Source: Oligoflexales bacterium
GTDB taxonomy: Bacteria; Bdellovibrionota_B; Oligoflexia; Oligoflexales; RGVZ01
NCBI GenBank assembly: GCA_044360315.1
Contig: JBIKKO010000001.1
Coordinates: 43,377-107,376, forward strand
Direction: 5' to 3'
Length of the DNA: 64,000 bases
Shown: piece after piece, positions 1,681 to 54,843 of the stretch
How positions within the stretch are numbered: the first letter of the stretch is position 1
Layout: every line of letters begins with the position of its first letter
Translations under genes and position numbers: made by a program
The notes under the pieces: generated by a model
Told to the model about the DNA's origin: nothing
The model's database searches: none
Seen by the model: the letters and a program-made list of their open reading frames with translations, nothing else

Positions 1681-1756
<76 letters not shown>

Positions 1757-2849: not shown

Positions 2850-3248
2850 CTAAGCTCTGCAAATCACCCGAATGCCAATACATTCGCCAATGGTTACATC
2901 TAAGTCGTTGCTGATAAGCGTGAGCCCATACTGCTTTGCGGTAGCGACGATCCAGGCATCTTGAGAAGTGAGAAACCGTCCGGCCTTCTTTGAGACCGCA
3001 CGAACGGCTGCATAATGCATCGCGGTCTCATGATCTATCGGCAATACGACATACTCGCTAACAAGTGAATCAATCTTTTGTTGCTTAGGCTTTCCCCAGC
3101 CTTTATATTCCGCTCCAAAATAAAGCTCACCGATAGTCTGAGCTGACAAATAGAGCGGTTGATCCGATTCAAGCTCAGGCCGATAGGGAAGTGCTAAAGG
3201 ATCGCCTCGAAAAATATAGGAAACCAGCATGGTGTCGACAATATACAT
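2850..3248 (-). CDS. vapC: PIN-domain toxin, VapC family
   Basis: 132 aa. N-terminal MYIVDT acidic residue and C-terminal LISNDLD. The size and spacing fit a PIN ribonuclease, and a small upstream partner gene sits 10 nt away. Confidence 0.75.
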   Translation of the reverse strand: MYIVDTMLVSYIFRGDPLALPYRPELESDQPLYLSAQTIGELYFGAEYKGWGKPKQQKIDSLVSEYVVLPIDHETAMHYAAVRAVSKKAGRFLTSQDAWIVATAKQYGLTLISNDLDVTIGECIGIRVICRA

Positions 3249-3258
3249 GGCTGATCAA

Positions 3259-3501
3259 TCAAAAAGACTTTTTGCGAGATTGCATAGCATCTTCTCGTCG
3301 CGCTTCAACGATCGCCTGAGCAAGTTCCTCGGCAGCCGCAGGTTCTAAATTTAATCGCAGGTCCTCAAGTTTGCGCCCAAACTTTGCTCCTTGGGCCTTT
3401 GCAATTTCTAACGCCTTGCGCTGAGCGGGGGAAAGATTGCTTTCATCAAATGAATTCTTTGACGGCTTCATGGGCTGACGCTGCCTTTCTGTATCTTGCA
3501 T
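3259..3501 (-). CDS. putative antitoxin partner of VapC
   Basis: An 80-aa charged protein immediately upstream of vapC on the same strand. No DNA-binding fold could be recognised by eye. Confidence 0.45.
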   Translation of the reverse strand: MQDTERQRQPMKPSKNSFDESNLSPAQRKALEIAKAQGAKFGRKLEDLRLNLEPAAAEELAQAIVEARREDAMQSRKKSF

Positions 3502-3668
3502 TCTTTCTCCTTAGTATCGGCTGCAGACTAGATTTCTAAAGCCCGCTTTAGCAAAGTTCGTCGAATTATAGCGAGAACCGAGTGTTTTGACTTCTCAAAT
3601 AATTGGGTCATACTCTTATGAATATCGGACATTTCGACGCTCTCGCCTCATCTATCAGTCCTAGAGGC

Positions 3669-3884
3669 CTTCAATATCTTCATCACTGTCGCAGCCTGCC
3701 ATTTAGCACGCCGCGACTTCGTCGGCACTCCCATGGAATTCAGGATATCGGCAATTTTCCAATAGCTGACACTTTGTCACGGAGATCAGCCATATGCTTC
3801 ATGGTATCTAATTCACGCTGGCTCACCTCAACCCGCCCCTTGATTACTTTTGATCCATATCCAATCTGCCCAGGCCGATACCAC
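3669..3884. repeat. 216-bp direct repeat, copy 1 (partner at 13714-13929)
   Basis: Aligned by hand. About 12 mismatches, all within the first ~95 bp. The last 122 bp (3763-3884 versus 13808-13929) are identical. Confidence 0.9.
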
Positions 3885-3934
3885 TGCGTCTTGTCCGGTT
3901 CACGAAGCGGTATGCCGAACCCCTGTAGTAGCAA
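3669..3934 (-). pseudogene. fragment of a large serine recombinase (Recombinase-domain portion only, frameshifted)
   Basis: The minus strand reads ...WYRPGQIGYGSKVIKGRVEVSQRELDTMKHMADLRDK, then shifts frame to SYWKIADILNSMGVPTKSRRAKWQAATVMKILK. This matches the PFGY...EA..V..IF...G.S...IA..LN..G..T..G..W....V..IL pattern. No catalytic resolvase domain is attached. Confidence 0.6.
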
Positions 3935-3953
3935 TAGACATTTTTCACTTTAG

Positions 3954-4622
3954 AACGCTGAAAATGAAAACAGAGGTAACGCCCTCACGGACCTCCAAAG
4001 CCTTCTTGAGTGTATGTATCTACACTTTCGTGATGTCGCAAAGGCCGTCGATTTTGGCGATAACCATGTCGATAAAGGCGTCTCCGGCAAAACCATTGAA
4101 CGCCCTGCACTTCGAAAGTTGATAGTGGATGTCAAAGCTGGAAAACTCACAACAATAATTACTTTCGAATTGTCGCACCTTAGCCGGAATTTTTTGGACA
4201 CATTATTTGTTATGCAAACAATCACTGCGGCTGGGGTAGAGGTTGAGTGCCCAGGCGATGGAGTAGTTCAATTCGAAAACACCCTTGAGCAGTTTATGGT
4301 TGCTGCATGCAGCCTCTCATCAGCTCAGGAGCGAGAGCGGATTTCCGAACGGACCAAGGCAGGTCTGATGGTGGCAAGAGCCCGGGGCGTCAAACTCGGT
4401 GCGAAGTCCGGTTGGACAAGAAAACTTGGGTGGCGAAAAGACTATCACGCAACCGAACCGCAACTTATTGAAAAAATTGTCTCCAAAAGACAACGTGGCA
4501 GATCATATGCCGAAAACGCAGGCGATCTCGGCATTTCAGTTAACAAGAGGTTTCGAATAGCGAAGCGTATTGCCATGCAACATCAGCAAGGCCGGATTGT
4601 TAACTCTGCAAAGGGGAATTAA
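3954..4622 (+). pseudogene. small serine recombinase (resolvase/invertase), 5'-truncated and lacking the catalytic-Ser segment
   Basis: DKGVSGKTIERPALRKLIVDVKAGKLTTIITFELSHLSRNFLD...SSAQERERISERTKAGLMVARARGVKLG matches the resolvase core, with a C-terminal HTH-like tail. The reading frame is closed by TAG at 3951-3953, before the expected YxRVSTxxQ region. Confidence 0.7.
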
Positions 4623-6045
4623 TCAAAAATTTCAAAATCACGCGCACCCCTTGTTGCGTATTTTCAATGCGGGCCCTTCCGCCGTGAAGTCTTGCAATTT
4701 CCTGTACAAAGGCTAACCCTAGACCGCTACTTTTTCGTCCAGTACTTGCCCGGGGCAAGGAGTAAAACCGCTCGAAGACCCTTGGGAGCGCATAATCGGG
4801 GATCTGTGATCCGACATCTTCGACCGATAATTCTACGTGTCGTAAATCGGAATTCCGGGCCGTAACTTCAATCGCTGTCCCCTGAGAGGCAAACTCCATA
4901 GCATTTTGAAGCAAATTTGAAATCGCCTGCGTTAAAAGGAATTCATCTCCCCAAAAGACGAGATTGGAATCTACATGCGTCTTCAGACTGAGTTGCCGCT
5001 GCTTGAGTGTTGCTTCTATTGAATGTGTCAATTCGTCGATTAATGCACCTAGCTCAACCCGTTCGCAATTCACTAGCTCTTTACTTCGCTCGATTTCACT
5101 TAAATTTAAAAGACGGTCCGCAATATCCTGTAGCCTGGCTGTCTCTGTTGCGATGTTCTTTAAAAATTTCGTTCGATCCACTTCCGTCATGGTTTCTTGC
5201 AACAGTTCGGATGCCGACCGAATACCGGTTAGCGGACCTTTGATTTCATGCGTCAGATTCTGGACATAGTTCTCTATGTATAGCTTTCCCTCCAATGTCT
5301 CCCGCATATGCTCAAATGCTTGGGCAAGCTCCGAAAGTTCTCGCGGTGCGAGTACCGGCTTCGGAGGATTTTGTCCTTCAGATATTAAAGAGGCATAGTC
5401 TTTCAGCCTTAGAATAGGCTTGGTAATGACGAAAGTTATGAAGATGATCAGCGCAACAAATACCAAAGCCGACGCGACCCCGATCAAAGTAATTCTCTTT
5501 TGCGCCGCGTGAATAAAAATATTCATCGTCTCTGGCGGCTTCGCGACCGTCAATACGCCTTTGATCTGTTTATCAACAATGATCGGAGCCGAAACATGCA
5601 TGACGGAAGTGAAAGGGTCATCGGTATTCGTTCGTGTTGCACGCGCGCCGTATTCGCCTCGTAGTGTTTTTACGATATCATTCCATTGACTAAAATCGGC
5701 GCCTACCTCCTTGCCTTTTGAATCGAAAACTACAATGCCATGTGCATCGGTAACGTAAACCCTTAGATCTATATTTGCTTTCACAACATCGTAGATTTTA
5801 GCTTCAAATCGCTTCTTGTATGCGTTGTCGAATGATCCCTGCAAAAATATGTTGGGGTTACCACCCTGCTCTTGGGAATTCTCAACCATCGCAGCCAGCA
5901 CGTTGGCAAAGTCGATGAGCGAATCCTCAATGCCTTCAAGATAACGTGGCCGAAGTTCCGATCTGACCCAGTCGGTTAGATAAAAAAAGAAAAAGCCATT
6001 AAGGATCAAAAATCCTAGGATTAGACGAAATCGTATGCTCACCAC
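4600..6045 (-). CDS. creC: sensor histidine kinase, CreC-like
   Basis: Two TM helices flank a periplasmic domain with YVTDAHGIVVFDS...FSQWNDIVKTLRGEYGARATR, as remembered for E. coli CreC. H-box LTHEIKGPL. C-terminus IPDYALPRVFERFYSLPRA...SSGLGLAFVQEIARLHGG. Confidence 0.8.
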   Translation of the reverse strand: MVSIRFRLILGFLILNGFFFFYLTDWVRSELRPRYLEGIEDSLIDFANVLAAMVENSQEQGGNPNIFLQGSFDNAYKKRFEAKIYDVVKANIDLRVYVTDAHGIVVFDSKGKEVGADFSQWNDIVKTLRGEYGARATRTNTDDPFTSVMHVSAPIIVDKQIKGVLTVAKPPETMNIFIHAAQKRITLIGVASALVFVALIIFITFVITKPILRLKDYASLISEGQNPPKPVLAPRELSELAQAFEHMRETLEGKLYIENYVQNLTHEIKGPLTGIRSASELLQETMTEVDRTKFLKNIATETARLQDIADRLLNLSEIERSKELVNCERVELGALIDELTHSIEATLKQRQLSLKTHVDSNLVFWGDEFLLTQAISNLLQNAMEFASQGTAIEVTARNSDLRHVELSVEDVGSQIPDYALPRVFERFYSLPRASTGRKSSGLGLAFVQEIARLHGGRARIENTQQGVRVILKFLINSPLQS

Positions 6046-6767
6046 GATTCCTTTACCGAATAACCTAATCCGCGATGGGTGATTACGGCCTCAATATCGG
6101 GTCGGATAGCATTCAGTTTTGTTCGCAAGGTTTTGATATGAGTATCGACGGTACGATCCAAACTTGCTTCTGGCTGCTCCCAGGCCATTTCCATAAGTTT
6201 ATCTCTGGAATAAACCCAGCCAGGTCTTTTGATGAGTACGCAAAGGATACGGAATTCCTGACGTGAAAGATTGAGAGGGCTGTCAAAATAAGTGATGGAG
6301 CAACGGTCCTCATCAACTCGGAAAGGAAAATTCTTTGGTGTGGTAGTTTTTGGTGCTGAATGATTATATGCACCTTCAGTCGCCGTCTGCTGGCGCAGCT
6401 CTTCTGTAAACCGAAGTATTGCGCGGACCCGCGCAGTTAATTCTCGGGGACTAAATGGTTTAGTAAGATAATCGTTTGCCCCAATCTCCAAACCGACGAC
6501 ACGATCAATTTCGCCGTCTCTTGCAGTTAGAAAAATTATTGGGATAGCCCTGGTAGCTAATTTCAGTTGGCGACACAGATCAAAGCCGCTCATGTCCGGC
6601 AAGCCTACGTCGAGAACAATTAGATGGAAAGGTTCCTTGTCAACGCGAGCCAAAGCTTCGGTTCCAGTCGTAACGTGGACTGCTGAAAACCCTTCGGATG
6701 AGAGCGCATAGAGCACGCTGTCCGCAATTGATTGTTCATCTTCGATAATAAGTATATGTGTTTTCAA
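6039..6767 (-). CDS. creB: OmpR-family response regulator, CreB-like (TTG start)
   Basis: ILIIEDEQSIADSVLYAL...LIVLDVGLPDMSGFDLCRQL...IIFLTARDGEIDRVVGLEIGANDYLTKPFSPREL plus winged-helix DRTVDTHIKTLRTKL...THRGLGYS. The gene overlaps creC by 7 nt. Confidence 0.85.
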   Translation of the reverse strand: MKTHILIIEDEQSIADSVLYALSSEGFSAVHVTTGTEALARVDKEPFHLIVLDVGLPDMSGFDLCRQLKLATRAIPIIFLTARDGEIDRVVGLEIGANDYLTKPFSPRELTARVRAILRFTEELRQQTATEGAYNHSAPKTTTPKNFPFRVDEDRCSITYFDSPLNLSRQEFRILCVLIKRPGWVYSRDKLMEMAWEQPEASLDRTVDTHIKTLRTKLNAIRPDIEAVITHRGLGYSVKESW

Positions 6768-6828
6768 ACCCTTACCGTTCCCGCGCTCTGAATCTTGTCC
6801 GCTCCAAAAAGTTTGAGTTTACACCGAT

Positions 6829-6844
6829 TTCACATCGATTTCAC
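6829..6844. promoter_or_regulatory. exact match to the CreB cre-tag consensus TTCACnnnnnnTTCAC
   Basis: TTCAC (6829-6833), atcgat, TTCAC (6840-6844). It lies mid-way in the 147-bp divergent intergenic region between creB (start 6767) and the exosortase gene (start 6915). Confidence 0.5.
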
Positions 6845-6914
6845 GCTCTTTTCAAATAATTCCCACAACCAAATCCGATAGTTAGTGTTAGGCCACAGCT
6901 GAAGAGAGGAACGG

Positions 6915-8450
6915 ATGCTAAACGAACCCAAACAAAACGCGACCGAGAAGGCCCACGTTCATACCAAGTATGCTTCGGCCATCCTCGGAGCTGGAGTGCT
7001 TATACTATGGATGTGGCATGTAGCGCCGAGTTTCTCCTGGTATCTGAAAAACTTGTTTGCCGGTCACGCTACGTTCAGCCTTCTGGCCTTTTCACTAGCA
7101 TCCGTTTTCTGGTTCCGCGATTTCAGAATTAAAAAAGAACTACCAATCTTTGAATTCAAAGATAGCAAATTGGCGCTCGTGTTAGTGGCGATTGCGCTCA
7201 CTATCATGGTGAGTAATCGCTACTACCTCCATTTAAATACCCTACGGGCATTTTCATCGTCGCTCCTTACGCTAGGCGTTGTTGGTCTTGTCACTGACCG
7301 CTACCGCTATTCTCGATCCCTTCCTCTTGGGATTTTCATTTGTGCGCTGGTGCCCTTGGAAAAACACATCGAAACCTTTGTTGGTTTTCCTCTGAGGTTA
7401 CTCACCGCAGAAGCCACAACATATCTGCTCGGCTCACTTGGAATGAATATTCAAGGGATGTCGACCATTTTGGTTGTCGAGAATGCCGCATCATCGGTCG
7501 ATTCAGTTTGTAGCGGAGTAAAGACCATATGGGCGGGGATGCTTTTTTTCATGTTGGCTAGTTATACTTCGCAGCAAAAATTCAACGTGAAATGGATTAC
7601 GAAAGCATTTCTGATTCTAATTTTGTTGGTATTGGCAAACTTCCTACGTGTCCTTTTACTGTCGGTGATCGCCCTCGCCATCCAAAGCAAGGAAATTTTT
7701 AATCTTTTACATTTACCATTAGGCGCTTTCGCTTTTGCCGCTGTTTGTCTTTATGCCAGCCAGATTCTCCCGAGAAACGGTGGCACAACTGAAATCGACA
7801 ACCTAAAGTGTCGCAATGGATCACTCAAATCTCCGATAGCAGCATTTAGCTTACTTATTTTTTCAGTACTACTCACACCAATGAGTATCGAAGGATCGAT
7901 AGCTTCTGAGCGTAAGTTTGATAAGGGCCTTAACATCAATTTCACGGCAAATATGATCACAACACCAATACCACTTACCGATCAAGAAAAAGCATTCTTC
8001 ATCCAGAATCAGGGTGCAAGTGTTTCTAAATGGAGATTTACCCACAACAATGACTCCAGAATGACTGGCACGTTGATCATTAGCCTTTCACGCTCCGGAA
8101 TTGCTCAACACGACCCACTTCAATGTCTCCTTGGAAGTGGCAATGAAGTTCAGTCGCTAAATACGATATTAGTCAGCCGGGATTTTCCGGCAAAAGTAGC
8201 AACCATTAATCGTGGACATTCGCAGGTCTTCTATTGGTTTCAAAGTGAACAAGGATTGACCGACGAATTTTCCCACAGATTCTGGGCGGGTCTGTTTAAT
8301 AACCGCCCTTGGGTAATGGTATCCGTTTTATTCGACAGCGCGGCCAACAACAGTCCAAACGACATCCTAAATTTTCTGAAAAAAATTCGTATCGATATCG
8401 CACACATTTTTTCTGACGAGGAGATTAATCATGACGTACGCCGCATCTAA
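6915..8450 (+). CDS. exosortase-family transpeptidase fused to a C-terminal EpsI-like domain
   Basis: Polytopic N-terminal ~300 aa with FPLRLLTAEATTYLLG, catalytic-type Cys in SVDSVCSGVKTIW (Cys199, 7509-7511), Arg in LANFLRVLL and His in LHLPLGAF. The C-terminal ~180 aa carry HDPLQCLLGSG and VFYWFQSEQG, resembling EpsI/DUF3485. Confidence 0.8.
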   Translation: MLNEPKQNATEKAHVHTKYASAILGAGVLILWMWHVAPSFSWYLKNLFAGHATFSLLAFSLASVFWFRDFRIKKELPIFEFKDSKLALVLVAIALTIMVSNRYYLHLNTLRAFSSSLLTLGVVGLVTDRYRYSRSLPLGIFICALVPLEKHIETFVGFPLRLLTAEATTYLLGSLGMNIQGMSTILVVENAASSVDSVCSGVKTIWAGMLFFMLASYTSQQKFNVKWITKAFLILILLVLANFLRVLLLSVIALAIQSKEIFNLLHLPLGAFAFAAVCLYASQILPRNGGTTEIDNLKCRNGSLKSPIAAFSLLIFSVLLTPMSIEGSIASERKFDKGLNINFTANMITTPIPLTDQEKAFFIQNQGASVSKWRFTHNNDSRMTGTLIISLSRSGIAQHDPLQCLLGSGNEVQSLNTILVSRDFPAKVATINRGHSQVFYWFQSEQGLTDEFSHRFWAGLFNNRPWVMVSVLFDSAANNSPNDILNFLKKIRIDIAHIFSDEEINHDVRRI

Positions 8451-11193
8451 ACGCTCCATACCTTCCGTGATAACAATGGGGTCATTCTGGACCTTCAACT
8501 TACTTGCGGGATTTGTTGGGCTTTTGGTCTTGCTTCCTGCCTTTGTGACGCTTCTGGGGGCCTTCATCTCATCTGGCCAGGCTTCTATTGAATACCCCTT
8601 CATGCTACTTCTGCTTAGTATTTTACCGCTACTTAGCATTTACGTCGCATTACGACACGTCCCGACCGGAGATTGGCGTCGGCTCCTCACCTTTTTTTGC
8701 ACTATCGAGTACCCGCTAATTATCTTGTTTCTTTGTCGATGTGTCCTGTTTCAGGATTTATCGTGGGGTCTAATCGCGAATCAGATTGTTTTGGTGTTAG
8801 GAGTCATTACCCAAGGCTGCCTCATGATTACGGGGCAAGAACGTCTCAAAAAATCAGCCCAGGCACTCACTTTCTGCGTCCAGATAATTTACCTAATATT
8901 TCTGTTCAAAATCGCGCTGATTGTATTGATCCCAGTGCTACCCGGTATTGTTGGGCTTATGAAATCAGTTCCTACTTTTCTTCTAGACTCACGTATGATT
9001 GCGAGCTTACTCATGATTGTTGTAGTCCTTGGCCCAATCGCCTTGCTCGTATTTTTCCTAACGGTATTTCCGACGTTTGCATTGACATGCACAAGTCTTC
9101 TCCAGTTGAAAGAATCGTTCCACACGGTGAAATCTCGGATTGGAGTAGCGCAATCCACCGGAATAATCGGTCTCGCAATCTTGGCTTTTGTAGGAATCAG
9201 GCAAATTGCGTTAATTCAGCCGCAAGAAGGCGTTTTTGAGCTGTTGGACAAAGACTTCAATGAACCGAGTGGCAAGCGCTTACTTTCTGATCAGGAAGGA
9301 CATATTAGACGAGGTTTGCTCAATGCGTACTTATCCTCTTATAGATACCTTACTGATCAGACCCGTCCTCCGAATGTTGGTCAAACGTACAGCAGGTATA
9401 TAGAAACCGTTGGGCGCAAGTCAGAAGAGCGAATCAATCACTTTTACAATGGCCTAATAGCGGAATTCATCTATCAAGGTGATCGCAATGCGGATTCCGC
9501 ATTGGCAGAACAGTGGTATTTGCGCTTCTTTGACAAAGATATGCAAGAAGCTGAACGCTCGGCTATTAATACCGCACTTAGGTCGTCATTGTTTAGCGGG
9601 GAGAGTGCGGGCGGTCTCATTGACATTGATGCCGAGAACGTCTTGCTCCGAAAGCAGCAAATTGAAATTACGGAAGCGGATGATTTGGCGGAAATCACGG
9701 TCCACGAAAGTTACTCGTCCGAATCTGTTCGCATTGAGGAAGTGGTTTATCATTTTGCACTTCCTGAAGATACCGCTCTGACCGGACTCTGGCTTAGTGA
9801 TGGTAGCAATCCCGAGAAAAAGTTTGCCTTCCGAATCAGCCCACGTGGAGCAGCTCAAAGCGTCTACAACAGCATTGTTGCTGAGCGGCAGGATCCAGCA
9901 CTCCTGGAACAGGTTGGTCCCAATATTTATCGTTTACGCGTGTTTCCAATTACTCAAACAAATGTGGGCCGCGCGGCAGAACGTGTCGATATGCATATGT
10001 GGTTTTCCTATGTTGCAGCTCCTGATGCTACGGGTAATTGGCCGGTCCCGCAGCTAATCGAAAGGCGAAACGTATACTGGGACGATAGAACAGAGCGCAC
10101 GGTTAATGGGCAAACAGTCAAAAATTCTGACGATTGGTTTACAAAATTTTCGGTGAAACCCAGTCATAAAGCGAGCGAACTCGAATTTCTTTGGAATCGC
10201 TATAAAGTGAGCAGGAGTTTACTGACGGACGAAAACAGTTTGGCAGCGGGGAAAATCGGTCCAGTGGCAGTTATCATTGATACGTCGCGCAGTATGAAAG
10301 AATATCTTCCTGGTATTCGCGATCAATTGCCCAGATATTCACAATATAATCTTGAGTTTTTTACGTTAGATAACGGCAAGCTGGTGCTCCATGGTTCACC
10401 TAAGTCTGGCGAGTTGCAGCTGTCGGCTTTTGGGCGGTCTTCCATAAATCAGCTCATCGATGCCTATCAAGAGAATAATAAAAACTATAGTGCGCTCCTT
10501 ATCTTAACAGATGAGGGTAACTACGATGAGAAATGGCTCTTACGCGGAAATCTTCCACCAACTTTCATCATCCATTATGGGCAGAAACATCCACGAGATT
10601 ATGGCGACGATTTGAGCGTTTTTCTAATGACCAGTGGTAACGGAATAGCATTTTCAATCGATGAAGCACTAAAGCGACTCACTGTGATTGAGCGACTGTC
10701 AGAAACGAACGACTCGTCGTATTTTCGGATTACCGAAAACTCAATCTGGCGCTTTGCGGAACAAAAGGAAGGCGTTGATCCTCGTCAGAAGACCTTAAAG
10801 CCAAGCGCACCTATGCAAGCATTGGCAGCGAAGGAGCTTATTCCTTACTTGGCGCATTCTAGGAAGGAAGTGGACAGTAAAGTCAAAGTAGAAGCGTTGA
10901 ATCGGGTCCACGAGCAAGCCATTCAGAATGGAATCGTGACTTTATTTTCGTCTATGATCGTTCTGGTAAACGACCGACAACAAAAGGCTTTGGACGAGGC
11001 TGAGACCAAGAGCAATAAATTTGAGCGTAAGACAGAAACGGGCATTGAAGCTTTGCAAGGAATGGTTGGTAGCATTTCAGCAACCCCTGAACCGCATGAA
11101 TGGGTTCTATTCGGTCTTGTCATGATCGCACTCCTGGTCTTTCTCAAGAAACAGGATTTAAGACCGGTGTTGGCTTTGTACAAACGGAAGTAA
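8431..11193 (+). CDS. 920-aa polytopic membrane protein with VIT-like and von Willebrand A domains and a PEP-CTERM-like C-terminal sorting tail
   Basis: About 8 hydrophobic helices in aa 15-260. VIT-like VVYHFALPEDTALTGLWL...QDPALLEQVGPNIYRLRVFPI. vWA MIDAS VAVIIDTSRSM and LLILTDEG. Tail TPEP-HEWVLFGLVMIALLVFL-KKQ (PEP at 11086-11094). There is a 20-nt overlap with the exosortase gene. Confidence 0.75.
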   Translation: MTYAASKRSIPSVITMGSFWTFNLLAGFVGLLVLLPAFVTLLGAFISSGQASIEYPFMLLLLSILPLLSIYVALRHVPTGDWRRLLTFFCTIEYPLIILFLCRCVLFQDLSWGLIANQIVLVLGVITQGCLMITGQERLKKSAQALTFCVQIIYLIFLFKIALIVLIPVLPGIVGLMKSVPTFLLDSRMIASLLMIVVVLGPIALLVFFLTVFPTFALTCTSLLQLKESFHTVKSRIGVAQSTGIIGLAILAFVGIRQIALIQPQEGVFELLDKDFNEPSGKRLLSDQEGHIRRGLLNAYLSSYRYLTDQTRPPNVGQTYSRYIETVGRKSEERINHFYNGLIAEFIYQGDRNADSALAEQWYLRFFDKDMQEAERSAINTALRSSLFSGESAGGLIDIDAENVLLRKQQIEITEADDLAEITVHESYSSESVRIEEVVYHFALPEDTALTGLWLSDGSNPEKKFAFRISPRGAAQSVYNSIVAERQDPALLEQVGPNIYRLRVFPITQTNVGRAAERVDMHMWFSYVAAPDATGNWPVPQLIERRNVYWDDRTERTVNGQTVKNSDDWFTKFSVKPSHKASELEFLWNRYKVSRSLLTDENSLAAGKIGPVAVIIDTSRSMKEYLPGIRDQLPRYSQYNLEFFTLDNGKLVLHGSPKSGELQLSAFGRSSINQLIDAYQENNKNYSALLILTDEGNYDEKWLLRGNLPPTFIIHYGQKHPRDYGDDLSVFLMTSGNGIAFSIDEALKRLTVIERLSETNDSSYFRITENSIWRFAEQKEGVDPRQKTLKPSAPMQALAAKELIPYLAHSRKEVDSKVKVEALNRVHEQAIQNGIVTLFSSMIVLVNDRQQKALDEAETKSNKFERKTETGIEALQGMVGSISATPEPHEWVLFGLVMIALLVFLKKQDLRPVLALYKRK

Positions 11194-11198
11194 TTGAA

Positions 11199-11939
11199 AT
11201 GCCATTCACAGTTTCCCATATTGCGGCAGTACTACCCCTAAAACGGTTGCCGTTATGTTTTCCCGCTCTGGTTATTGGGGCGATGAGTCCCGACTTTACT
11301 TACGTTATCGAAGTTTTCGGTCCGAGCATCGAAGCTCATTCCATTTATGGAATCTTGTATTTTTGTCTGCCAGTTTCATGGTTGGTTTTATTTGTCTACA
11401 AATCCTTTCTTAGATACGCCTGGGAAAAATTGTTCCCGTGGCTCAACGGTGAGAGTCGCCCATATGGGTGGTATGTAATTCCACTCTCCATCATCCTAGG
11501 AGCCGCAACACACGTAGTTTGGGATAGTTTCACCCACCGCCACGGGTACGCCGTCATTCATATAAATGCCCTACAGTGGATGCTCTTCAGAGTCGGAACG
11601 TATCCCGTGACGGTCTTTAAGATTCTCCAACATGGAAGCACTGTAGGTGGGGGATTTGCAGTTGCCGTGGGAATTTATCGAGCCGCAAGACGCTCGGACC
11701 AAAGAAAATTTGTGACGTCGAAGCCAACTCTGGCTGCGTTAGTGATTGCAACTTTCTTCGTTACCCTGCTTATCAGTTTTCAATTTTTATTAAGTCTGGA
11801 AGCGCAATTTCACATGCCGCATGGGCTATTAGTTATGCGAATGGCGATTCGATTGCTTGCAGCATTGGTGGTTGTCACGATTACCTACCCATTTTCTGTC
11901 TGGGTTCAGAGAAAGACCGGAGGAAACCCATGCAGATAG
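11199..11939 (+). CDS. DUF4184-like membrane protein
   Basis: I prefer the internal ATG at 11199, giving MPFTVSHIAAVLPL, over the track start at 11100 inside the upstream gene. That N-terminus is the one I recall for DUF4184. Multiple TM helices and His-rich HVVWDSFTHRHG. Confidence 0.6.
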   Translation: MPFTVSHIAAVLPLKRLPLCFPALVIGAMSPDFTYVIEVFGPSIEAHSIYGILYFCLPVSWLVLFVYKSFLRYAWEKLFPWLNGESRPYGWYVIPLSIILGAATHVVWDSFTHRHGYAVIHINALQWMLFRVGTYPVTVFKILQHGSTVGGGFAVAVGIYRAARRSDQRKFVTSKPTLAALVIATFFVTLLISFQFLLSLEAQFHMPHGLLVMRMAIRLLAALVVVTITYPFSVWVQRKTGGNPCR

Positions 11940-12397
11940 AGGTGAGTCGCATTGTTCGCAAGACTATTCGGTTTATGTTTTGGGTTGTTTTTGCCCCGGT
12001 CATTCCGTTAGTCGCTACCCTTTTAGTCTCCATTGTGGGGTCTATCTATGAAGATTTTCGTCTCCGAAACATCAAGACACCTGGTTTTTTCAACGTCTGC
12101 TTTGATGTGACTTATCCAGGCGCGGGTGACCGATATAGAGAATATTTTGTAGTAGACTGCAAGGACAGGGACAAAAATTTCGCCGCTCAAAGTATCGGTG
12201 CCAACTGGGGTGAACTTTCGTATGACGACCTGGACGGCGATGGTGTAGCCGAAGTGATACTTACTTCCGAACGAGGGATATTCGATGGGTCTTGTGCCGA
12301 CGAGACGAAAACTGTTTACAAGCTACATGTCGGACCTCCTGCTGTGATTTCCGAAATCAGTGTTCGGAAACGAACCGGTCCTAGATATGACGTATAA
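11930..12397 (+). CDS. hypothetical N-terminally anchored protein with an FG-GAP/calcium-loop-like DDLDGDGVAEVIL motif
   Basis: 10-nt overlap with the DUF4184 gene. One TM helix, then a soluble domain. No recognisable family. Confidence 0.45.
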   Translation: MQIEVSRIVRKTIRFMFWVVFAPVIPLVATLLVSIVGSIYEDFRLRNIKTPGFFNVCFDVTYPGAGDRYREYFVVDCKDRDKNFAAQSIGANWGELSYDDLDGDGVAEVILTSERGIFDGSCADETKTVYKLHVGPPAVISEISVRKRTGPRYDV

Positions 12398-12632
12398 ATT
12401 TTACGAAGCGCATCTAAAGTTCCACCCCATAAGACTGAAGCGTGTTTGGATTAGAAGTATTTTCGGTTCACCGGCTGAGGCCCCCAATTGGGTAGTTTAG
12501 CCGTTCGCAAATCGCGGCAGATTGCCCGGTATAGACACTCCCGTCGATCTTAATGTTCTCAAAGGAACGTTGGAGGACCTTTCGTCATTTTGACGGTGTT
12601 AGGCGGTCAGTTGATTTGTAAGTGATGACGTC

Positions 12633-12983
12633 ATGCGGAGATTTGAAAGAACCAAAAAAGTGCTGGCCAGTCTTGCTTGGATCACATTTGTCTTTTTTCA
12701 CGTGATCACGATTTTCCTTTATGTCACTATGGGTCTTCCAGAGTACCTTTGGTTTTGTTCTGTAGAAGGGATGCATTTATGCTCTTTGCATCCTATGAGT
12801 TGCCCAATTGAAGGAGGAGAGGAAATCGTTCCTACACAACCATTTACAGCAAGCGAATTAGCGGCGGTTGAAGCCGGAGGCGGGTTGGACCCTCACTCTT
12901 TCGGCATTTTACATACAGTGATTGTTTTGGCAATAATAATTTACATCGGAAAGAAGGTGTACACTCGCCATGTGAGGAGCTAG
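12633..12983 (+). CDS. hypothetical small membrane protein
   Basis: Two hydrophobic helices (WITFVFFHVITIFLYV, ILHTVIVLAIIIYIG). No family recognised, and coding status is uncertain. Confidence 0.3.
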   Translation: MRRFERTKKVLASLAWITFVFFHVITIFLYVTMGLPEYLWFCSVEGMHLCSLHPMSCPIEGGEEIVPTQPFTASELAAVEAGGGLDPHSFGILHTVIVLAIIIYIGKKVYTRHVRS

Positions 12984-13282
12984 CTAGGTTGGATGTTACC
13001 CTTTATGATCTTCATTACGGTCGCTGGCTGCGACTTGGTCGGCACTCCCATTGAATTTGGGATTTCAGCGATCTTCCAATAGCTGTAGCCCTGGTCCCGA
13101 AGAGCCACCATCCGTTCGACAGCCTCAATCTCCCGTTGGTTCACCACCAGTCGCCCGTTTACGACGCGCTTGCCATACCCAAATTGGTGTCCGCTGTGAT
13201 ATAAGATTGACTGAAGCACTTGACCATGAATACTTTCACAGGAACCTGACCCATGAAACCAGTCGCGGTTCGGCTGCTGCAC
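12980..13282 (-). pseudogene. third, diverged fragment of a large serine recombinase (Recombinase-domain only)
   Basis: HQFGYGKRVVNGRLVVNQREIEAVERMVALRDQGYSYWKIAEIPNSMGVPTKS is homologous at protein level to the fragments at 3669-3934 and 13714-13929. No catalytic domain is present. Confidence 0.55.
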
Positions 13283-13304
13283 TAGAACTATAAAACGTTT
13301 AGGT

Positions 13305-13685
13305 TTGATTTCGATGAAGCATAAGAAATTACGAGGGCACTACTGCTGGGTGTGCGATAGAATGCTGGCCAATGAGCGATTCAGTGGCGGTGGTCACAGC
13401 CGCCATATCTGTAAAGACTGCAGCAAGCTTGGTTCAGAAGAACTATCATACCGGCAAGATGTTCGTAACATTGATCGATGCATTGGTTTCGATGGCGGCA
13501 TTAGACGGAAACAACGCAAAACTTTTGATCGTTTTCTAACCCACGAAAATCCACGAGTAAGGGAATACACATTGAAAATAAAAGAGGACATGGAAAGAAG
13601 GCGTAACACGTGGAACGAGAATGAGGATGAGGATGATTCTTACTGCGATTTTGAGATAGCCTTTATGGACGACCTGTACCGTTAG
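13305..13685 (+). CDS. hypothetical zinc-ribbon protein with an acidic C-terminus
   Basis: CWVCDR...HICKDCSK forms a CxxC...CxxC pair. The tail is charged (NENEDEDDSYCDFE). Confidence 0.45.
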   Translation: MISMKHKKLRGHYCWVCDRMLANERFSGGGHSRHICKDCSKLGSEELSYRQDVRNIDRCIGFDGGIRRKQRKTFDRFLTHENPRVREYTLKIKEDMERRRNTWNENEDEDDSYCDFEIAFMDDLYR

Positions 13686-13713
13686 CAGGCGATATCTCTG
13701 TCACCTATGATAC

Positions 13714-13929
13714 CTTCAAAATCTTCATGACTGTTGCAGGCTGCCATTTTGCTCGCCAAGACTTCGTCGGCACGCCCATGGAATTGAGGATATCGGTAAT
13801 TTTCCATTAGCTGACACTTTGTCACGGAGATCAGCCATATGCTTCATGGTATCTAATTCACGCTGGCTCACCTCAACCCGCCCCTTGATTACTTTTGATC
13901 CATATCCAATCTGCCCAGGCCGATACCAC
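13714..13929. repeat. 216-bp direct repeat, copy 2 (partner at 3669-3884); also a dead large-serine-recombinase fragment on the minus strand
   Basis: Same alignment as copy 1. The minus strand reads GRGWYRPGQIGYGSKVIKGRVEVSQRELDTMKHMADLRDK. It has the same frameshift as copy 1 plus an extra TAA (13807 mismatch). Confidence 0.9.
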
Positions 13930-27637: not shown

Positions 27638-28328
27638 AATCCTTTAAGCCGGTAATTGTTAGCAACCGACCATTCTTTGTCTGCTCCCGACAAATTAGCA
27701 TCTTATTCTTAAAAAAACCTAAAAAGCCCCCCCAGCGCAATGTTGCGCAACTTTGAATATCATCTTGTCTTTCTGAGTTTTGCGTCTGGGTCACCTTCAT
27801 GGAGACTTCAATCCCTCTCAGTTCGTCCGAACCCATTAACAGAAAAGAGCCGTCACTCTGACGACTCAAAGATAAAAATCGCAACCAAGTAACAGGCCAC
27901 GTCCCAGAAAGAAGGCAGCCGATCTCATTAGCGAAGATCGGCAGCTCAATCTTATTCACTTTAATAACTCGGTTTTTTGCTTCAGAAATTACGAGTCCAT
28001 CAGATCCGGTAATCTTCCACTCCGGCTGCGAGCGCGATAACTGAAAGATCGTATCGCCCAAGACAGAATTAAACTGAAGATCTGCTGATCGATCATCAGG
28101 GATGTTCCAAACGACTTCCGAACTAAAAATTCTCGTTCCGTTCATTGAAACATTTAGCGAGGCATCACGATCACTGGGAGTGCAGTTCAAAAAAAGCGGC
28201 TGAAAGACAACAGGCAAAACAGTGGGTTGAGAGGGCTTTGAAACCGTCACGCACGAAACCAGAAACCAAGTCGCAGATCCTAAGGCTAGTGCATAAGTAA
28301 TTATTGAATTGCCTCGAAACAATCTCAT
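27603..28328 (-). CDS. hypothetical lipoprotein
   Basis: Lipobox FLVSC. Beta-rich and no family recognised. It follows a TPR lipoprotein gene with a 4-nt overlap. Confidence 0.45.
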   Translation of the reverse strand: MRLFRGNSIITYALALGSATWFLVSCVTVSKPSQPTVLPVVFQPLFLNCTPSDRDASLNVSMNGTRIFSSEVVWNIPDDRSADLQFNSVLGDTIFQLSRSQPEWKITGSDGLVISEAKNRVIKVNKIELPIFANEIGCLLSGTWPVTWLRFLSLSRQSDGSFLLMGSDELRGIEVSMKVTQTQNSERQDDIQSCATLRWGGFLGFFKNKMLICREQTKNGRLLTITGLKDYVVEWMVQSEQ

Positions 28329-30133
28329 CCCCCGACTTTGAGTTCTTTGGTAAGGGATTCATACTTTTTTTGAATTCTATCTTGATCTCGTCGATCGTTC
28401 TTACATTTGACTGCCTTTGTAAAGGCATCCAAAGCCTTTTGTTTGTCTCCAAGTGCAAGATGCACATCACCCACATGCTCCCAAATCACGCCCTCTTCCG
28501 GCTCATTGGCAACAGCTTTTTCAAGAATCTCTAGAGCTCTTTTGTATTGCTTCTTCTGGTAGTAAAGCCAACCGAGTGAGTCCAAATAGGCACCATTTTC
28601 TGGTTGAATTTTCAAAGCCCTCTTTACCAATTCCTCAGCCTCATCTAGGTTCTCATTGATTTCAATCAGCATATAGCCTAAAAAATTCAAAGCAGCCGCA
28701 TGGTTTGGAGATATCGCAATCAGCTCTCGCATGACAGACTCCGCTTCTTTCCGGTCACCGTTTCTTTCGAGAAAAGCACCCTTCGCAAACAAAATCCTGT
28801 CATTTTTAGGGAACTTTTTAAGACCATCATTTGCGACTTCAATAGCTTCCTTTACCTGATCGTCTTCCACCAATATTTCACCCAAGATGAGGAACGCAAG
28901 TGGCTGCACCTCTGCTCGCTTACAAAGCTGACGAAGAATCTCAATTGCCTCTCTTTTCTTCCCGCGTTCTACCAGCAATAGTGCTTGCAGACGTAAAGCA
29001 TCACTTTTAAGAGGAGATTCATTTTGGATCTTGGCAAATTTTTCCAATGCCTCGTCTATTTTACCAATCCGCTGCAATGCCACCGCATATAGAAACATGG
29101 TTCTATCAGAGTCTGGTAATGAGGAGACTAAAGCCTGAGCCTCCTTAAACGCATCATCATTGCGATTCATCTCCCACAAAATGATCACCCGCTGCATCCT
29201 TAGTCCTGGGACTTCGTCTTTAGCGTTTTCAATCATATCATCCAAAAGAGTCAAGGCGTCATCAAGATTCCCAAGCTCTTTATAGAGAGAAACCATACGC
29301 TCAACCAATTCAGAATTACTTGGATTAAAGCGATACAACTGCTCATAAAGCTTGACGGCTTCTCCACTACGTTTGTTCAAATCAAGCGATAACGCATAGA
29401 TGAGGGCAAGCTCAGGATTATTTTCTTGCAGCTCCCAGGCTCGCCTGGCTGGTTCAAGACTCTCCTTAACTCGCTTTGAGGATAAAAAAATCCTGCTTAA
29501 CATCGACCAAGACTGTGGACTCTGCGGATTAGCTTTGACCATCTTTTTAGCAGCATCAATCGCAGCATCAGTCTTAGATTGATCTTGATAGCCACGTATC
29601 AAAAACAAGTAGGCACTCTCTAGACGCGGATTCAACTCAATCGCTTTTTTGAGTTGGACCTCAGCCTCCCTAAAGTCACGCGCAATCATCAAAGACTGAC
29701 CAAAAAGAAGTCTAATATCCGCATCCTGCGGGTACAGCAAAGCCATCCGCCGAGCCTCTGTGAGGGCTTCTGAGTCCTTGGGGTTAACAAGAATTTTCGA
29801 CCGCACCAGCTGCGATCCTGTAAAGGAGTTGGGATCAAGATTGTACGAAGACTCGAAGTGCTCACCAGCCGTAAATGCATCGCCAGCGAGTAAACTCTTT
29901 TCAGCGACTAAAAAATGATAGATTGCGTTAGCACGACGATTCCCAGGAGACCACATGTTGGCCGTGTCTAATCCAAGGGTATCATCCATTCCTGGAATGT
30001 TTTTAGTACCGTCTCTACTCTCCACGTCACTACCATCTAACACATCACTTGATGTTCGCGGCGACGTTGTTCGACAGTTGCTACATAAAAAAACTAACGT
30101 GACGACCAAAGATTTTCTGATTGAATTTATCAA
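28325..30133 (-). CDS. TPR-repeat protein (probable lipoprotein)
   Basis: A long series of 34-aa repeats with the A..Y/F..AL...P pattern (for example ALEILEKAVANEPEEG, AEELVKRALKIQPENG). Confidence 0.8.
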   Translation of the reverse strand: MINSIRKSLVVTLVFLCSNCRTTSPRTSSDVLDGSDVESRDGTKNIPGMDDTLGLDTANMWSPGNRRANAIYHFLVAEKSLLAGDAFTAGEHFESSYNLDPNSFTGSQLVRSKILVNPKDSEALTEARRMALLYPQDADIRLLFGQSLMIARDFREAEVQLKKAIELNPRLESAYLFLIRGYQDQSKTDAAIDAAKKMVKANPQSPQSWSMLSRIFLSSKRVKESLEPARRAWELQENNPELALIYALSLDLNKRSGEAVKLYEQLYRFNPSNSELVERMVSLYKELGNLDDALTLLDDMIENAKDEVPGLRMQRVIILWEMNRNDDAFKEAQALVSSLPDSDRTMFLYAVALQRIGKIDEALEKFAKIQNESPLKSDALRLQALLLVERGKKREAIEILRQLCKRAEVQPLAFLILGEILVEDDQVKEAIEVANDGLKKFPKNDRILFAKGAFLERNGDRKEAESVMRELIAISPNHAAALNFLGYMLIEINENLDEAEELVKRALKIQPENGAYLDSLGWLYYQKKQYKRALEILEKAVANEPEEGVIWEHVGDVHLALGDKQKALDAFTKAVKCKNDRRDQDRIQKKYESLTKELKVGG

Positions 30134-53796: not shown

Positions 53797-54843
53797 ATGC
53801 GCTCTGAAATACAACATCAGAAAGACGACAACATCATGACTGAGGATCGTCTCCGTAGGCATCTATTTTCAAAACCTAAAGCAAAATTTTGGGGCTTTGA
53901 TGAAGCGAACCTGACCATTGGGTTGGAAGTCGAATACTTTATCGCAAAAATTTCAGGGTCAAAATTTCGACTTGCGACGAAGGATGACTATATTCAAGTC
54001 ACAAGCATTCTAAAGGAGCGTTTTAACTACATCGACCAAAACCTGCTTGATCAGCCAGGGCGTCTAAGTAAAGATACAGAGTCTGGCTTTATTGCAATTA
54101 AGCCAGATTTTGCATGGCACATTCTAGAGATTTCGTTTCCACCAAGACAGAATTTGGACCAATTACGTGACATCATCACAACCGTTTTCACGGAGGTTGA
54201 CACCGCACTATCAGAGCTTCATTTGGAAAGACTAGATCTAAGCTGCTTACCCAATACCCCCAATGACATTGATTTCGTTGCCCTTGATCGACTCAGGGAT
54301 ATATCGACAACATTTCGACCAAAGTCTCTTACAAATCCCACTCAAGATCCAAATTTCCCTGCTTATATCGCCGCCACGCATATTCACCTCAACGCTGGCT
54401 CTGAAGATATACTAAAGCACATGCCTCAACTATTCGCACTAGACCCTTTGATTAGTAAGAAGTTTACAAGAGCCAACGAATTTAACGGCCGATTTTATGA
54501 AAATGCCCGTACACGGATGTATCGCGATACGTTGGGAGACGACTACCTCCTCCACACTTATCCCAAGGATCCGGCATACGATTTGGCCTCATTGGTTAAG
54601 CTGATGAATAATTCTCCCAAGCTCTTTCCATCCGATCCTTTTTTTCCAGTTAGAGATATGTCGTACATAAGGATAACGCGGTTTGGAACGCTCGAATTCA
54701 GATCATGTTGCTCATTTAAATCGGTCAATACACTATTAAAAATCGCAGAGTGTCGCATTGCGCAGCTTCTTGCCGCTACGGCCATTGACACACATAGACT
54801 AGTTACACTACTTGGTGATGATTATCAGGAGAAGCCTGCGTGA
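53797..54843 (+). CDS. GCS2/YbdK-like carboxylate-amine ligase
   Basis: I prefer the ATG at 53797, with AAAGGAG 7 nt upstream, over the TTG track start. Motifs IGLEVEYFI, ILEISFPP, ATHIHLN, RTRMYR and GTLEFRSCCS follow the order of glutamate-cysteine ligase family 2 motifs. Confidence 0.6.
   Translation: MRSEIQHQKDDNIMTEDRLRRHLFSKPKAKFWGFDEANLTIGLEVEYFIAKISGSKFRLATKDDYIQVTSILKERFNYIDQNLLDQPGRLSKDTESGFIAIKPDFAWHILEISFPPRQNLDQLRDIITTVFTEVDTALSELHLERLDLSCLPNTPNDIDFVALDRLRDISTTFRPKSLTNPTQDPNFPAYIAATHIHLNAGSEDILKHMPQLFALDPLISKKFTRANEFNGRFYENARTRMYRDTLGDDYLLHTYPKDPAYDLASLVKLMNNSPKLFPSDPFFPVRDMSYIRITRFGTLEFRSCCSFKSVNTLLKIAECRIAQLLAATAIDTHRLVTLLGDDYQEKPA

Follow-up and report, generated by a model that had tools for sequence, protein, structure and literature searches.

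Most exosortase systems serve dozens of substrates, and their chemistry is still to be worked out, from where they cleave to which acceptor they use and what becomes of the processed protein. The Cys-Xaa-Gly motif of EpsH and the fusion of EpsH with EpsI have already been described by Haft (2006; PMC1569441), and the same study flagged a small integral-membrane family, that of TIGR02921, as an exception among PEP-CTERM proteins. Several catalogued systems pair a single sorting enzyme with a large protein that carries a VIT domain; these include the XrtN system, the proteobacterial dedicated sortase system, and exosortase O (XrtO) with the proteins of family TIGR02921. This article concerns a gene pair found in a 64,000-nucleotide stretch of DNA from an Oligoflexales bacterium (assembly GCA_044360315.1, contig JBIKKO010000001.1, positions 43,377 to 107,376), the whole of which is hereafter called the window. 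The first gene of the pair, xrtO, encodes an exosortase, and the second encodes its predicted substrate, called the target below. It is probable, in our estimation, that the two belong to a four-gene envelope module, in which a kinase of the CreC type and a regulator of the CreB type accompany XrtO and a single dedicated substrate from TIGR02921. The pair and its parts lie at the following positions of the window.

6915..8450, plus strand: xrtO (exosortase O), 511 residues, with an EpsH core at residues ~22-285, an extra transmembrane helix, and a putative C-terminal EpsI-like domain at residues ~330-511.
7509..7511, plus strand: codon of Cys199, the predicted catalytic nucleophile (Cys-x-Gly), invariant in the XrtO alignment.
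8431..11193, plus strand: TIGR02921-family PEP-CTERM protein, 920 residues, the predicted single XrtO substrate.
8458..9216, plus strand: seven-helix membrane domain of the target, residues 10-262, with helices at 10-48, 54-76, 82-105, 112-134, 141-185, 187-237, and 239-260 in two AlphaFold2 models.
9640..10110, plus strand: VIT domain, residues ~404-560, a beta-sandwich in the model (PF08487, 39.4-41.7 bits against a cutoff of 26.5).
10258..10770, plus strand: vWA-like alpha/beta domain, residues ~610-780, with the motif D617-T-S619-R-S621 and D694 of the metal-ion-dependent adhesion site (MIDAS) type.
11077..11193, plus strand: sorting tail S-A-T-P-E-P-H-E-W, transmembrane helix 889-905, and basic tail KKQDLRPVLALYKRK.

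An original prediction, made from the letters of the window alone, had placed two open reading frames (ORFs) at these coordinates on the plus strand with an overlap of 20 nt, and an ORF check bears this out. Every motif it quoted was found where it was said to be. The xrtO product carries SVDSVCSGVKTIW with Cys199, LANFLRVLL at residue 240, and LHLPLGAF at residue 265, followed in its C-terminal part by HDPLQCLLGSG at residue 399 and VFYWFQSEQG at residue 438; the target carries its VIT strings at residues 438 and 487, VAVIIDTSRSM at residue 612, LLILTDEG at residue 689, and a tail composed of TPEP at residue 885, HEWVLFGLVMIALLVFL at residue 889, and KKQ at residue 906. The 20-nt overlap is kept in two metagenomic relatives of the locus (L088 and L003), and a GAGGAG Shine-Dalgarno sequence lies a few nucleotides 5' of the target ATG, within the 3' end of xrtO. 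One JGI gene call of the target (P0013) starts 131 residues late and gives a protein of 789 residues; the family alignment and the TIGR02921 profile favor the start that yields 920 residues.

Judged by profile scores, the pair is exosortase O with a TIGR02921 protein, a system that is already catalogued in NCBIfam/TIGRFAMs. The xrtO product scores 271.9 bits against TIGR04489 (exosortase O; curated cutoff 250), with residues 32-478 aligned to positions 1-449 of the 451 in the profile; the margin over the cutoff is only 22 bits, and the next-best exosortase subfamilies are XrtQ (60.3 bits), XrtT (55.5 bits), and XrtN (54.9 bits). The target scores 492.3 bits against TIGR02921 ('PEP_integral'; cutoff 200), with residues 13-908 covering positions 7-921 of 922. 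Identical sequences at JGI bear the labels 'exosortase O' and 'putative PEP-CTERM system integral membrane protein', and a search of 1.84 billion proteins returned 378 representatives of 50%-identity clusters for the XrtO family at E<=1e-30. The pair had been put forward as a new one-enzyme, one-substrate counterpart of a dedicated sortase system; both genes belong to the catalogued system, and by the criterion that the original prediction set for itself, this removes the novelty and leaves the annotation intact.

The lead from the original prediction toward the XrtN system (TIGR04476/TIGR04477) did not hold. Weak local similarity does exist, at 54.9 bits for the enzyme and at 43.4 bits over the VIT region and tail of the target for TIGR04477, but both scores are far under the respective cutoffs of 200 and 250, whereas XrtO and TIGR02921 pass theirs, and membership of the pair in the XrtN system has next to no probability. 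Two further groups of models were tried and rejected. The MSEP-CTERM protein model TIGR04286 gave 25 bits against a cutoff of 150, as a local match over the VIT domain and tail, and the marine/proteobacterial dedicated sortase models for the target (TIGR03788, likewise matched just locally over the VIT domain and tail), the kinase (TIGR03785), and the regulator (TIGR03787) gave 34.7 against 551.65, 121.6 against 612.2, and 151 against 335.7 bits.

The enzymatic core of XrtO is well marked. The xrtO product exceeds the Pfam cutoff for Exosortase_EpsH with 75.6 bits and matches the exosortase/archaeosortase signature TIGR04178 with 32.2 bits (cutoff 23). An alignment was made of 44 family members, most of which are just 22-26% identical to the XrtO of the window, and R161, C199-S200-G201, N242, R245, and H266 are invariant within it. 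The proposal of an exosortase with a Cys/Arg/His signature on a polytopic core is therefore sustained, both by the two TIGRFAMs models above cutoff and by the invariance of C199, R245, and H266. Two members of the family show irregular gene structures. In a cyanobacterial metagenome-assembled genome (MAG; locus L021), the XrtO frame is divided between two ORFs (4312-5223 and 5213-5884), which may reflect a frameshift or sequencing error or a pseudogene, and in a protein of 846 residues (P0150) the XrtO region occupies residues 359-842 behind approximately 358 extra N-terminal residues, perhaps as a fusion or through a mis-called start.

The C-terminal domain of XrtO is less readily assigned. 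It is preceded by one additional hydrophobic helix at residues ~305-327, its residues 339-478 are covered by TIGR04489, and it weakly resembles the corresponding part of XrtD (E 0.003). Within the 44 aligned members, G385, H399-x-P401-x-x-C404, and G409 are invariant. DUF3485, which we take to be the EpsI family, is matched by 24 of the 44 at E<=1, with a best E of 6.5e-4, but the domain in the window matches no EpsI/DUF3485 model of Pfam or NCBIfam, sub-region searches included. Of the earlier claim of a fused EpsI-like domain, what stands is the similarity seen in relatives and the invariant H399-x-P-x-x-C404, and what does not is a match of the window copy itself; an EpsH-EpsI fusion in XrtO is plausible, if weakly shown.

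The target was modeled with AlphaFold2 from 106 sequences, with a mean predicted local distance difference test (pLDDT) of 86.8 and a predicted TM-score (pTM) of 0.85. The model runs from the helices of residues 10-260 through a helical region (268-384), the beta-sandwich (404-560), the alpha/beta domain (612-780), and further helices (784-858) to a low-confidence linker (880-886) and a last helix (888-907). E93, P95, R103, and P171 are conserved in the seven-helix domain, and an invariant QPQ (263-265) follows directly after it. Sub-region searches with the sequence of this domain gave no Pfam or NCBIfam match, and a Foldseek search of the isolated domain against the PDB gave nothing significant (best E 1.7). 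The VIT-like segment named in the original prediction was recovered by PF08487 above cutoff, as given in the list, and contains the invariant strings PRGAAQ and DPALLEQxG.

The vWA assignment rests on fold rather than on sequence profile, as vWA hidden Markov models (HMMs) did not match the target even at E<=10. A profile built from the family alignment gave just a marginal match to the VIT domain of PARP4 (E 0.17) among PDB sequences. When the model was compared with the PDB using Foldseek, inter-alpha-inhibitor heavy chain 1 (6fpy) was the top match, with E 1.3e-12 over approximately 600 columns, and the vWA2 domain of archaeal ArnB (5a8j) was matched with E 1e-3. Because of these fold matches, and because D617-x-S619-x-S621 and D694 are invariant in the 106 sequences, the vWA domain and its MIDAS are confirmed despite the silence of the HMMs. 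At the C-terminus the three parts of a PEP-CTERM-type tail, namely the PEP motif, the transmembrane helix, and the basic end, are all present, as had been claimed for this large polytopic VIT-vWA protein, and P886-E887-P888 is invariant or nearly so across the family. The hydrophobic segments and basic loops fit an arrangement with the N-terminus inside, seven spans, a periplasmic ectodomain, the PEP motif at the outer face, and a cytoplasmic basic end, and the predicted topology is accordingly one in which the last helix crosses back through the membrane.

Comparative evidence for a dedicated pair comes from the association of the two genes and from the tail of the target. Among the GTDB species-representative matches listed, 79 TIGR02921 loci were usable, in each of which XrtO was looked for within 6 kb; all counts of such loci given here refer to these listed matches, of which the best reaches 31% identity to the window pair. 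The xrtO gene lies directly upstream in 43 of the 79. Conversely, every XrtO gene examined has a TIGR02921 gene next after it in the same orientation, and this covers the window and two other assemblies of it, four metagenomic relatives (XrtO 83, 71, 51, and 45% identical to that of the window), a distant metagenomic locus, a Chloroflexi MAG, and the 43 listed GTDB loci. The coupling of the exosortase to one VIT-vWA target, as first proposed from the window, is thus kept wherever XrtO was examined. The remaining 36 listed loci, mostly from Nostocales and other cyanobacteria, have no XrtO within 6 kb (L013, L016, L018, L019, L023, L027, L030, L042, and L046 are examples), and no conserved partner was found beside their TIGR02921 genes, the neighbors being unrelated housekeeping genes.

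The tail separates the two groups. The motif [ST][GA][VT]PEPxxW ends all 43 of the listed targets that adjoin XrtO and none of the 36 others (Fisher p 4e-17, uncorrected for phylogeny); among the latter, PEPxxW alone is retained in five, and the rest end in sequences such as VPEASGGW, VPESSNG, or VPEPG. The tail in the window, SATPEPHEW, is of the XrtO type. On a neighbor-joining tree of 81 targets, the distribution calls for approximately four independent changes of state, and the XrtO-linked state is found on all deep non-cyanobacterial branches. The simplest reading is that linkage to XrtO is ancestral and that, in lineages from which XrtO was lost, the tail was adjusted to suit the general exosortase; an example is Nostoc punctiforme, where CrtB is the sole exosortase (PMC12188702). 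For the reading of the target tail by the adjacent XrtO, the comparative evidence is good.

It could be argued instead that XrtO works as a general exosortase, for which the TIGR02921 neighbor would be just one of many PEP-CTERM substrates, the others being encoded elsewhere in the genome. The data come from a 64-kb window only, generic enzymes, XrtA and CrtB among them, act on dozens of substrates, and about half of the TIGR02921 genes have no adjacent XrtO, so that another enzyme must handle those, if any does. Such a general role is nevertheless quite improbable in our judgment, as no XrtO locus examined lacks a TIGR02921 gene directly downstream, the tail signature is confined to targets linked to XrtO (43 of 43 against 0 of 36), and no further PEP-type tail occurs in the window. 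The last point agrees with the original prediction; a six-frame scan of the 64 kb for a P-E-P-like motif followed by a hydrophobic and a basic segment returned the target only. As to the stronger claim that the enzyme has a single target, the covariation of the tail motif speaks for it, but 64 kb of one genome are insufficient to prove it. A tetratricopeptide repeat (TPR) protein of 602 residues encoded at 28325-30133 on the minus strand scores 182 bits against the model for PrsT of the XrtA/PEP-CTERM system (cutoff 312), which is probably generic TPR similarity.

Upstream of xrtO lie the other two members of the proposed module, transcribed in the opposite direction, and between them and xrtO lies a conserved block of intergenic sequence.

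4600..6045, minus strand: CreC-type sensor histidine kinase, 480 residues (NF008312, 556.5 bits against a cutoff of 356; Pfam HAMP, HisKA, and HATPase_c).
6039..6767, minus strand: CreB-type response regulator of the OmpR family, 242 residues, divergent from xrtO (NF008296, 304.4 bits against a cutoff of 273).
6818..6884, plus strand: conserved regulatory block with four TTCAC-like half-sites at a spacing of 11 bp (TTTAC at 6818, TTCAC at 6829, TTCAC at 6840, and TTCAA at 6851).

All four relatives from the clade of the window (L088, L087, L003, and L004) carry the divergent regulator-kinase pair, which is absent at cyanobacterial, myxobacterial, and Chloroflexi XrtO loci. The regulator is 95, 89, 76, and 67% identical to that of the window in L088, L087, L003, and L004, with the same position and orientation, and the kinase is 91, 83, and 56% identical in L088, L087, and L004. 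The block lies in the 147-nt intergenic region between creB and xrtO and contains a perfect cre tag, TTCAC-N6-TTCAC (TTCACATCGATTTCAC), at 6829-6844, followed by CAAATCCGATAGTTA; the tag is located 86-71 nt upstream of the start of xrtO. Both the perfect tag and a block of approximately 65 nt are kept in all five clade members, the window included, though their XrtO proteins are just 45-83% identical. Exact matches to TTCAC-N6-TTCAC number two in the window and eight in 1.0 Mb of compared loci, and most of them are these intergenic sites. The other perfect match in the window, at 56774-56789, falls inside an ORF of 952 residues (54840-57698) and probably occurs by chance. The cre/blr tag has been reported as critical for the binding of activated CreB/BlrA, and in Stenotrophomonas maltophilia the creD tag is found at -80 to -65 (PMC4689548). 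No match to the CreD family was found among the neighboring ORFs scanned, and scans for sigma-70 promoters and terminators over 6000-12600 returned fewer matches than in shuffled sequence and were uninformative. We infer direct control of the xrtO-target operon by the CreBC-type system, in which xrtO would stand where creD stands in the species studied.

The four-gene module could then operate in the following manner. Upon an envelope or metabolic signal, the CreC-like kinase would phosphorylate the CreB-like regulator, which would bind the TTCAC-N6-TTCAC array upstream of xrtO and activate the overlapping xrtO-target operon, as suggested by the conservation of the site and by published work on CreBC. 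The target would be inserted in the inner membrane by its seven helices, with a VIT-vWA ectodomain of ~620 residues in the periplasm and the PEP-CTERM helix as a second anchor, a placement predicted from the model and the positive-inside rule. Homology suggests that XrtO would recognize S-[GA]-[VT]-P-E-P-x-x-W at the periplasmic face, and that Cys199, together with Arg245 and His266, would remove the C-terminal helix via an acyl-enzyme, as would be expected from sortase-like exosortases and archaeosortases. More speculatively, the new C-terminus of the target might be released by water or transferred to an acceptor in the envelope. As the seven-helix domain would remain in the membrane, processing could not release or secrete the target; cleavage would convert a doubly anchored ectodomain into one that is singly tethered, or cross-linked to an acceptor, and the far end of a metal-dependent binding domain would be freed or cross-linked.

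The same seven membrane helices, which mean that removal of the tail cannot release the target, lend some appeal to the view that the target is not cleaved at all. The PEP-CTERM helix would then anchor it permanently at a second point, and XrtO, together with the putative EpsI-like domain, would serve as a lasting partner or help in assembly. This is very unlikely, however, given that the catalytic Cys-Ser-Gly, Arg, and His do not vary among XrtO proteins of 22-26% identity, which argues for retained catalysis, and given that P-E-P is invariant or nearly so in the targets. Processing of the target by XrtO is therefore retained as the preferred reading, and within it the acceptor invites a bolder idea. 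Inter-alpha-inhibitor heavy chains are cleaved C-terminally, and the new C-terminus is esterified to a glycosaminoglycan. The likeness of the target ectodomain to a heavy chain invites, as speculation, a hypothesis of transfer in which, in this lineage, a CreBC-type system for envelope or metabolic stress would turn on an exosortase, and the exosortase would join the C-terminus of a tethered, heavy chain-like VIT-vWA protein covalently to an envelope polymer. Argued by analogy as it is, this proposal is a long shot; if true, it would provide a bacterial counterpart of the cross-linking of heavy chains to glycosaminoglycan and the first defined acceptor chemistry of an exosortase in a one-enzyme, one-substrate system.

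Several considerations weigh against the four-gene module. A full-text literature search returned no paper on exosortase O/XrtO or TIGR02921, and hence no experiment on either. The correlation of tail motif with XrtO represents approximately four evolutionary events, not 79, and the tail of the target reaches only 13.4 bits against the generic PEP-CTERM model TIGR02595 (cutoff 16; E 0.11). The search for competing substrates covered 64 kb of the genome, and other substrates of the exosortase may lie beyond it. The link to CreBC is confined to a small clade of five contigs, all metagenomic, and creBC might just as well use the intergenic site, which it shares with xrtO, to regulate itself.

A further question is raised by the position of the pair within a segment of 10 kb bracketed by repeats, which the original prediction regarded as apparently mobile. 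The features concerned are these.

1681..1756: tRNA-Asn, the sole Rfam match in the window.
2850..3501: PIN toxin, preceded by a small ORF resembling an antitoxin; both lie immediately left of the module.
3668..3884, no strand assigned: direct repeat, left copy, 217 nt, the minus strand of which corresponds to a frameshifted recombinase-like C-terminus.
4014..4622: resolvase ORF without the first 34 profile positions, which presumably include the catalytic Ser region.
11199..11939, plus strand: DUF4184/Zn-dependent phospholipase C-like membrane hydrolase (PF13803, 155.9 bits, profile from residue 1).
13713..13929, no strand assigned: direct repeat, right copy, 217 nt, 94% identical to the left copy and 10,045 nt away.

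The DUF4184 gene begins 6 nt past the stop of the target. It is found in the window and in its closest relative L088 and is absent in L087, L003, and L004; because it is common only to these two, its distribution marks it as accessory and outside the core module. Both flanking repeat copies are remnants of the C-terminus of a recombinase-like gene (motif SYWKIADILNSMGVPTKS) and are frameshifted. A third, diverged copy of the repeat is present as an ORF at 12980-13282 on the minus strand, with weak similarity to Recombinase and HTH_7 (E 0.025 and 0.12). The rest of the window is ordinary chromosome carrying gltX, murG, rseP, and rho. Among Rho proteins with a taxon label, the nearest are 80-87% identical to that of the window and come from MAGs labelled Pseudomonadota, Proteobacteria, or Oligoflexales bacterium; further relatives reach 90-92%.

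The pair could accordingly be viewed as cargo of a mobile or excisable 10-kb element that owes its presence to recent horizontal transfer rather than to a chromosomal envelope function. Consistent with this, the 217-nt repeats of 94% identity surround 10,045 bp that contain the resolvase ORF, creCB, xrtO, the target, and the DUF4184 gene, the repeats themselves derive from a recombinase-like gene, and a tRNA-Asn and a PIN toxin-antitoxin pair stand just upstream. The independently assembled Logan contig L001 (SRR27421096) is 100% identical to positions 3855-13804 of the window and ends within both repeats, which fits either a repeat-induced break in assembly or a circular form of the segment, and the relatives share just the four-gene core of kinase, regulator, xrtO, and target between unrelated flanks. 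Set against this, the resolvase is truncated and the recombinase pieces encoded by the repeats are frameshifted, the GC content of the segment is the same as that of its flanks, a tblastn search with XrtO of 72,556 PLSDB plasmids gave no match, and the breaking of contigs at repeats is an ordinary assembly artefact. Moreover, a mobile origin concerns the history of the segment and is compatible with the functional reading of its four genes. On balance, recent transfer as the explanation of the pair is unlikely, though it deserves some weight. The repeat that brackets the 10,045 bp is what stands of the proposed mobile segment; its recombinase genes are remnants, and relatives carry the module in other contexts. 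The arrangement of tRNA-Asn, PIN pair, and truncated resolvase looks like a decayed genomic islet, and the segment as a whole looks like an old one from which excision by homologous recombination may still be possible.

As annotation the pair is ordinary, since pipeline names for both genes already exist, and what the four-gene module offers is an approachable minimal system, not a surprising one. XrtO with TIGR02921 would pair a single enzyme with a single substrate through a signal that is sharply defined, S-[GA]-[VT]-PEPxxW, and the apparent on-switch in the clade of the window, formed by CreBC and the cre tag, would make it a practical model for tests of cleavage and of transfer to an acceptor. 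A further consequence would be an unexpected addition to the cre regulon, of which the role in physiology is poorly understood. Beyond the catalogued annotation, the analysis contributes the CreBC/cre-tag coupling, which looks undescribed for the XrtO pair, the tail signature specific to XrtO, and a seven-helix domain without a known fold in the PDB.

Compared with known systems, the locus is closest to the catalogued XrtO/TIGR02921 loci, 43 others of which were found among the GTDB matches listed, and it shares with them the gene order, the catalytic residues, the VIT domain, and the PEP tail. The clade of the window is a deep and divergent branch, identity to the cyanobacterial core being 22-26% for XrtO and 27-31% for the target, and among XrtO/TIGR02921 loci the divergent CreBC-type system and the cre tag are confined to it. 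The regulatory half of the module resembles the CreBC/BlrAB systems of Escherichia coli, Aeromonas, Pseudomonas, and Stenotrophomonas in having CreB and CreC equivalogs and a perfect tag at a similar distance; unlike in those systems, the tagged neighbor is xrtO and not creD, and the host, by its Rho protein from an uncultured proteobacterial or Oligoflexales-like lineage, falls outside the classical CreBC organisms. The structure that best matches the target ectodomain, inter-alpha-inhibitor heavy chain 1 (6fpy), has a MIDAS-type motif as well, but identity is 12%, TM-scores of 0.26/0.36 point to a different packing of domains, and the heavy chain has neither a membrane domain nor a PEP tail. 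The XrtN/TIGR04477 system and TIGR04286 likewise combine exosortase-type enzymes with a large VIT-containing partner and are distinct families by score. Finally, the proteobacterial dedicated sortase system follows the same logic, in that a single sorting enzyme and a single VIT-vWA substrate have an OmpR-type two-component system next to them, whereas the enzyme of the present locus is an unrelated polytopic exosortase, the signal is PEP-CTERM and not LPXTG, and a seven-helix domain stands in place of the signal peptide; judged from these sequence features, the XrtO pair is an analogue of the dedicated sortase system and not a member of it.

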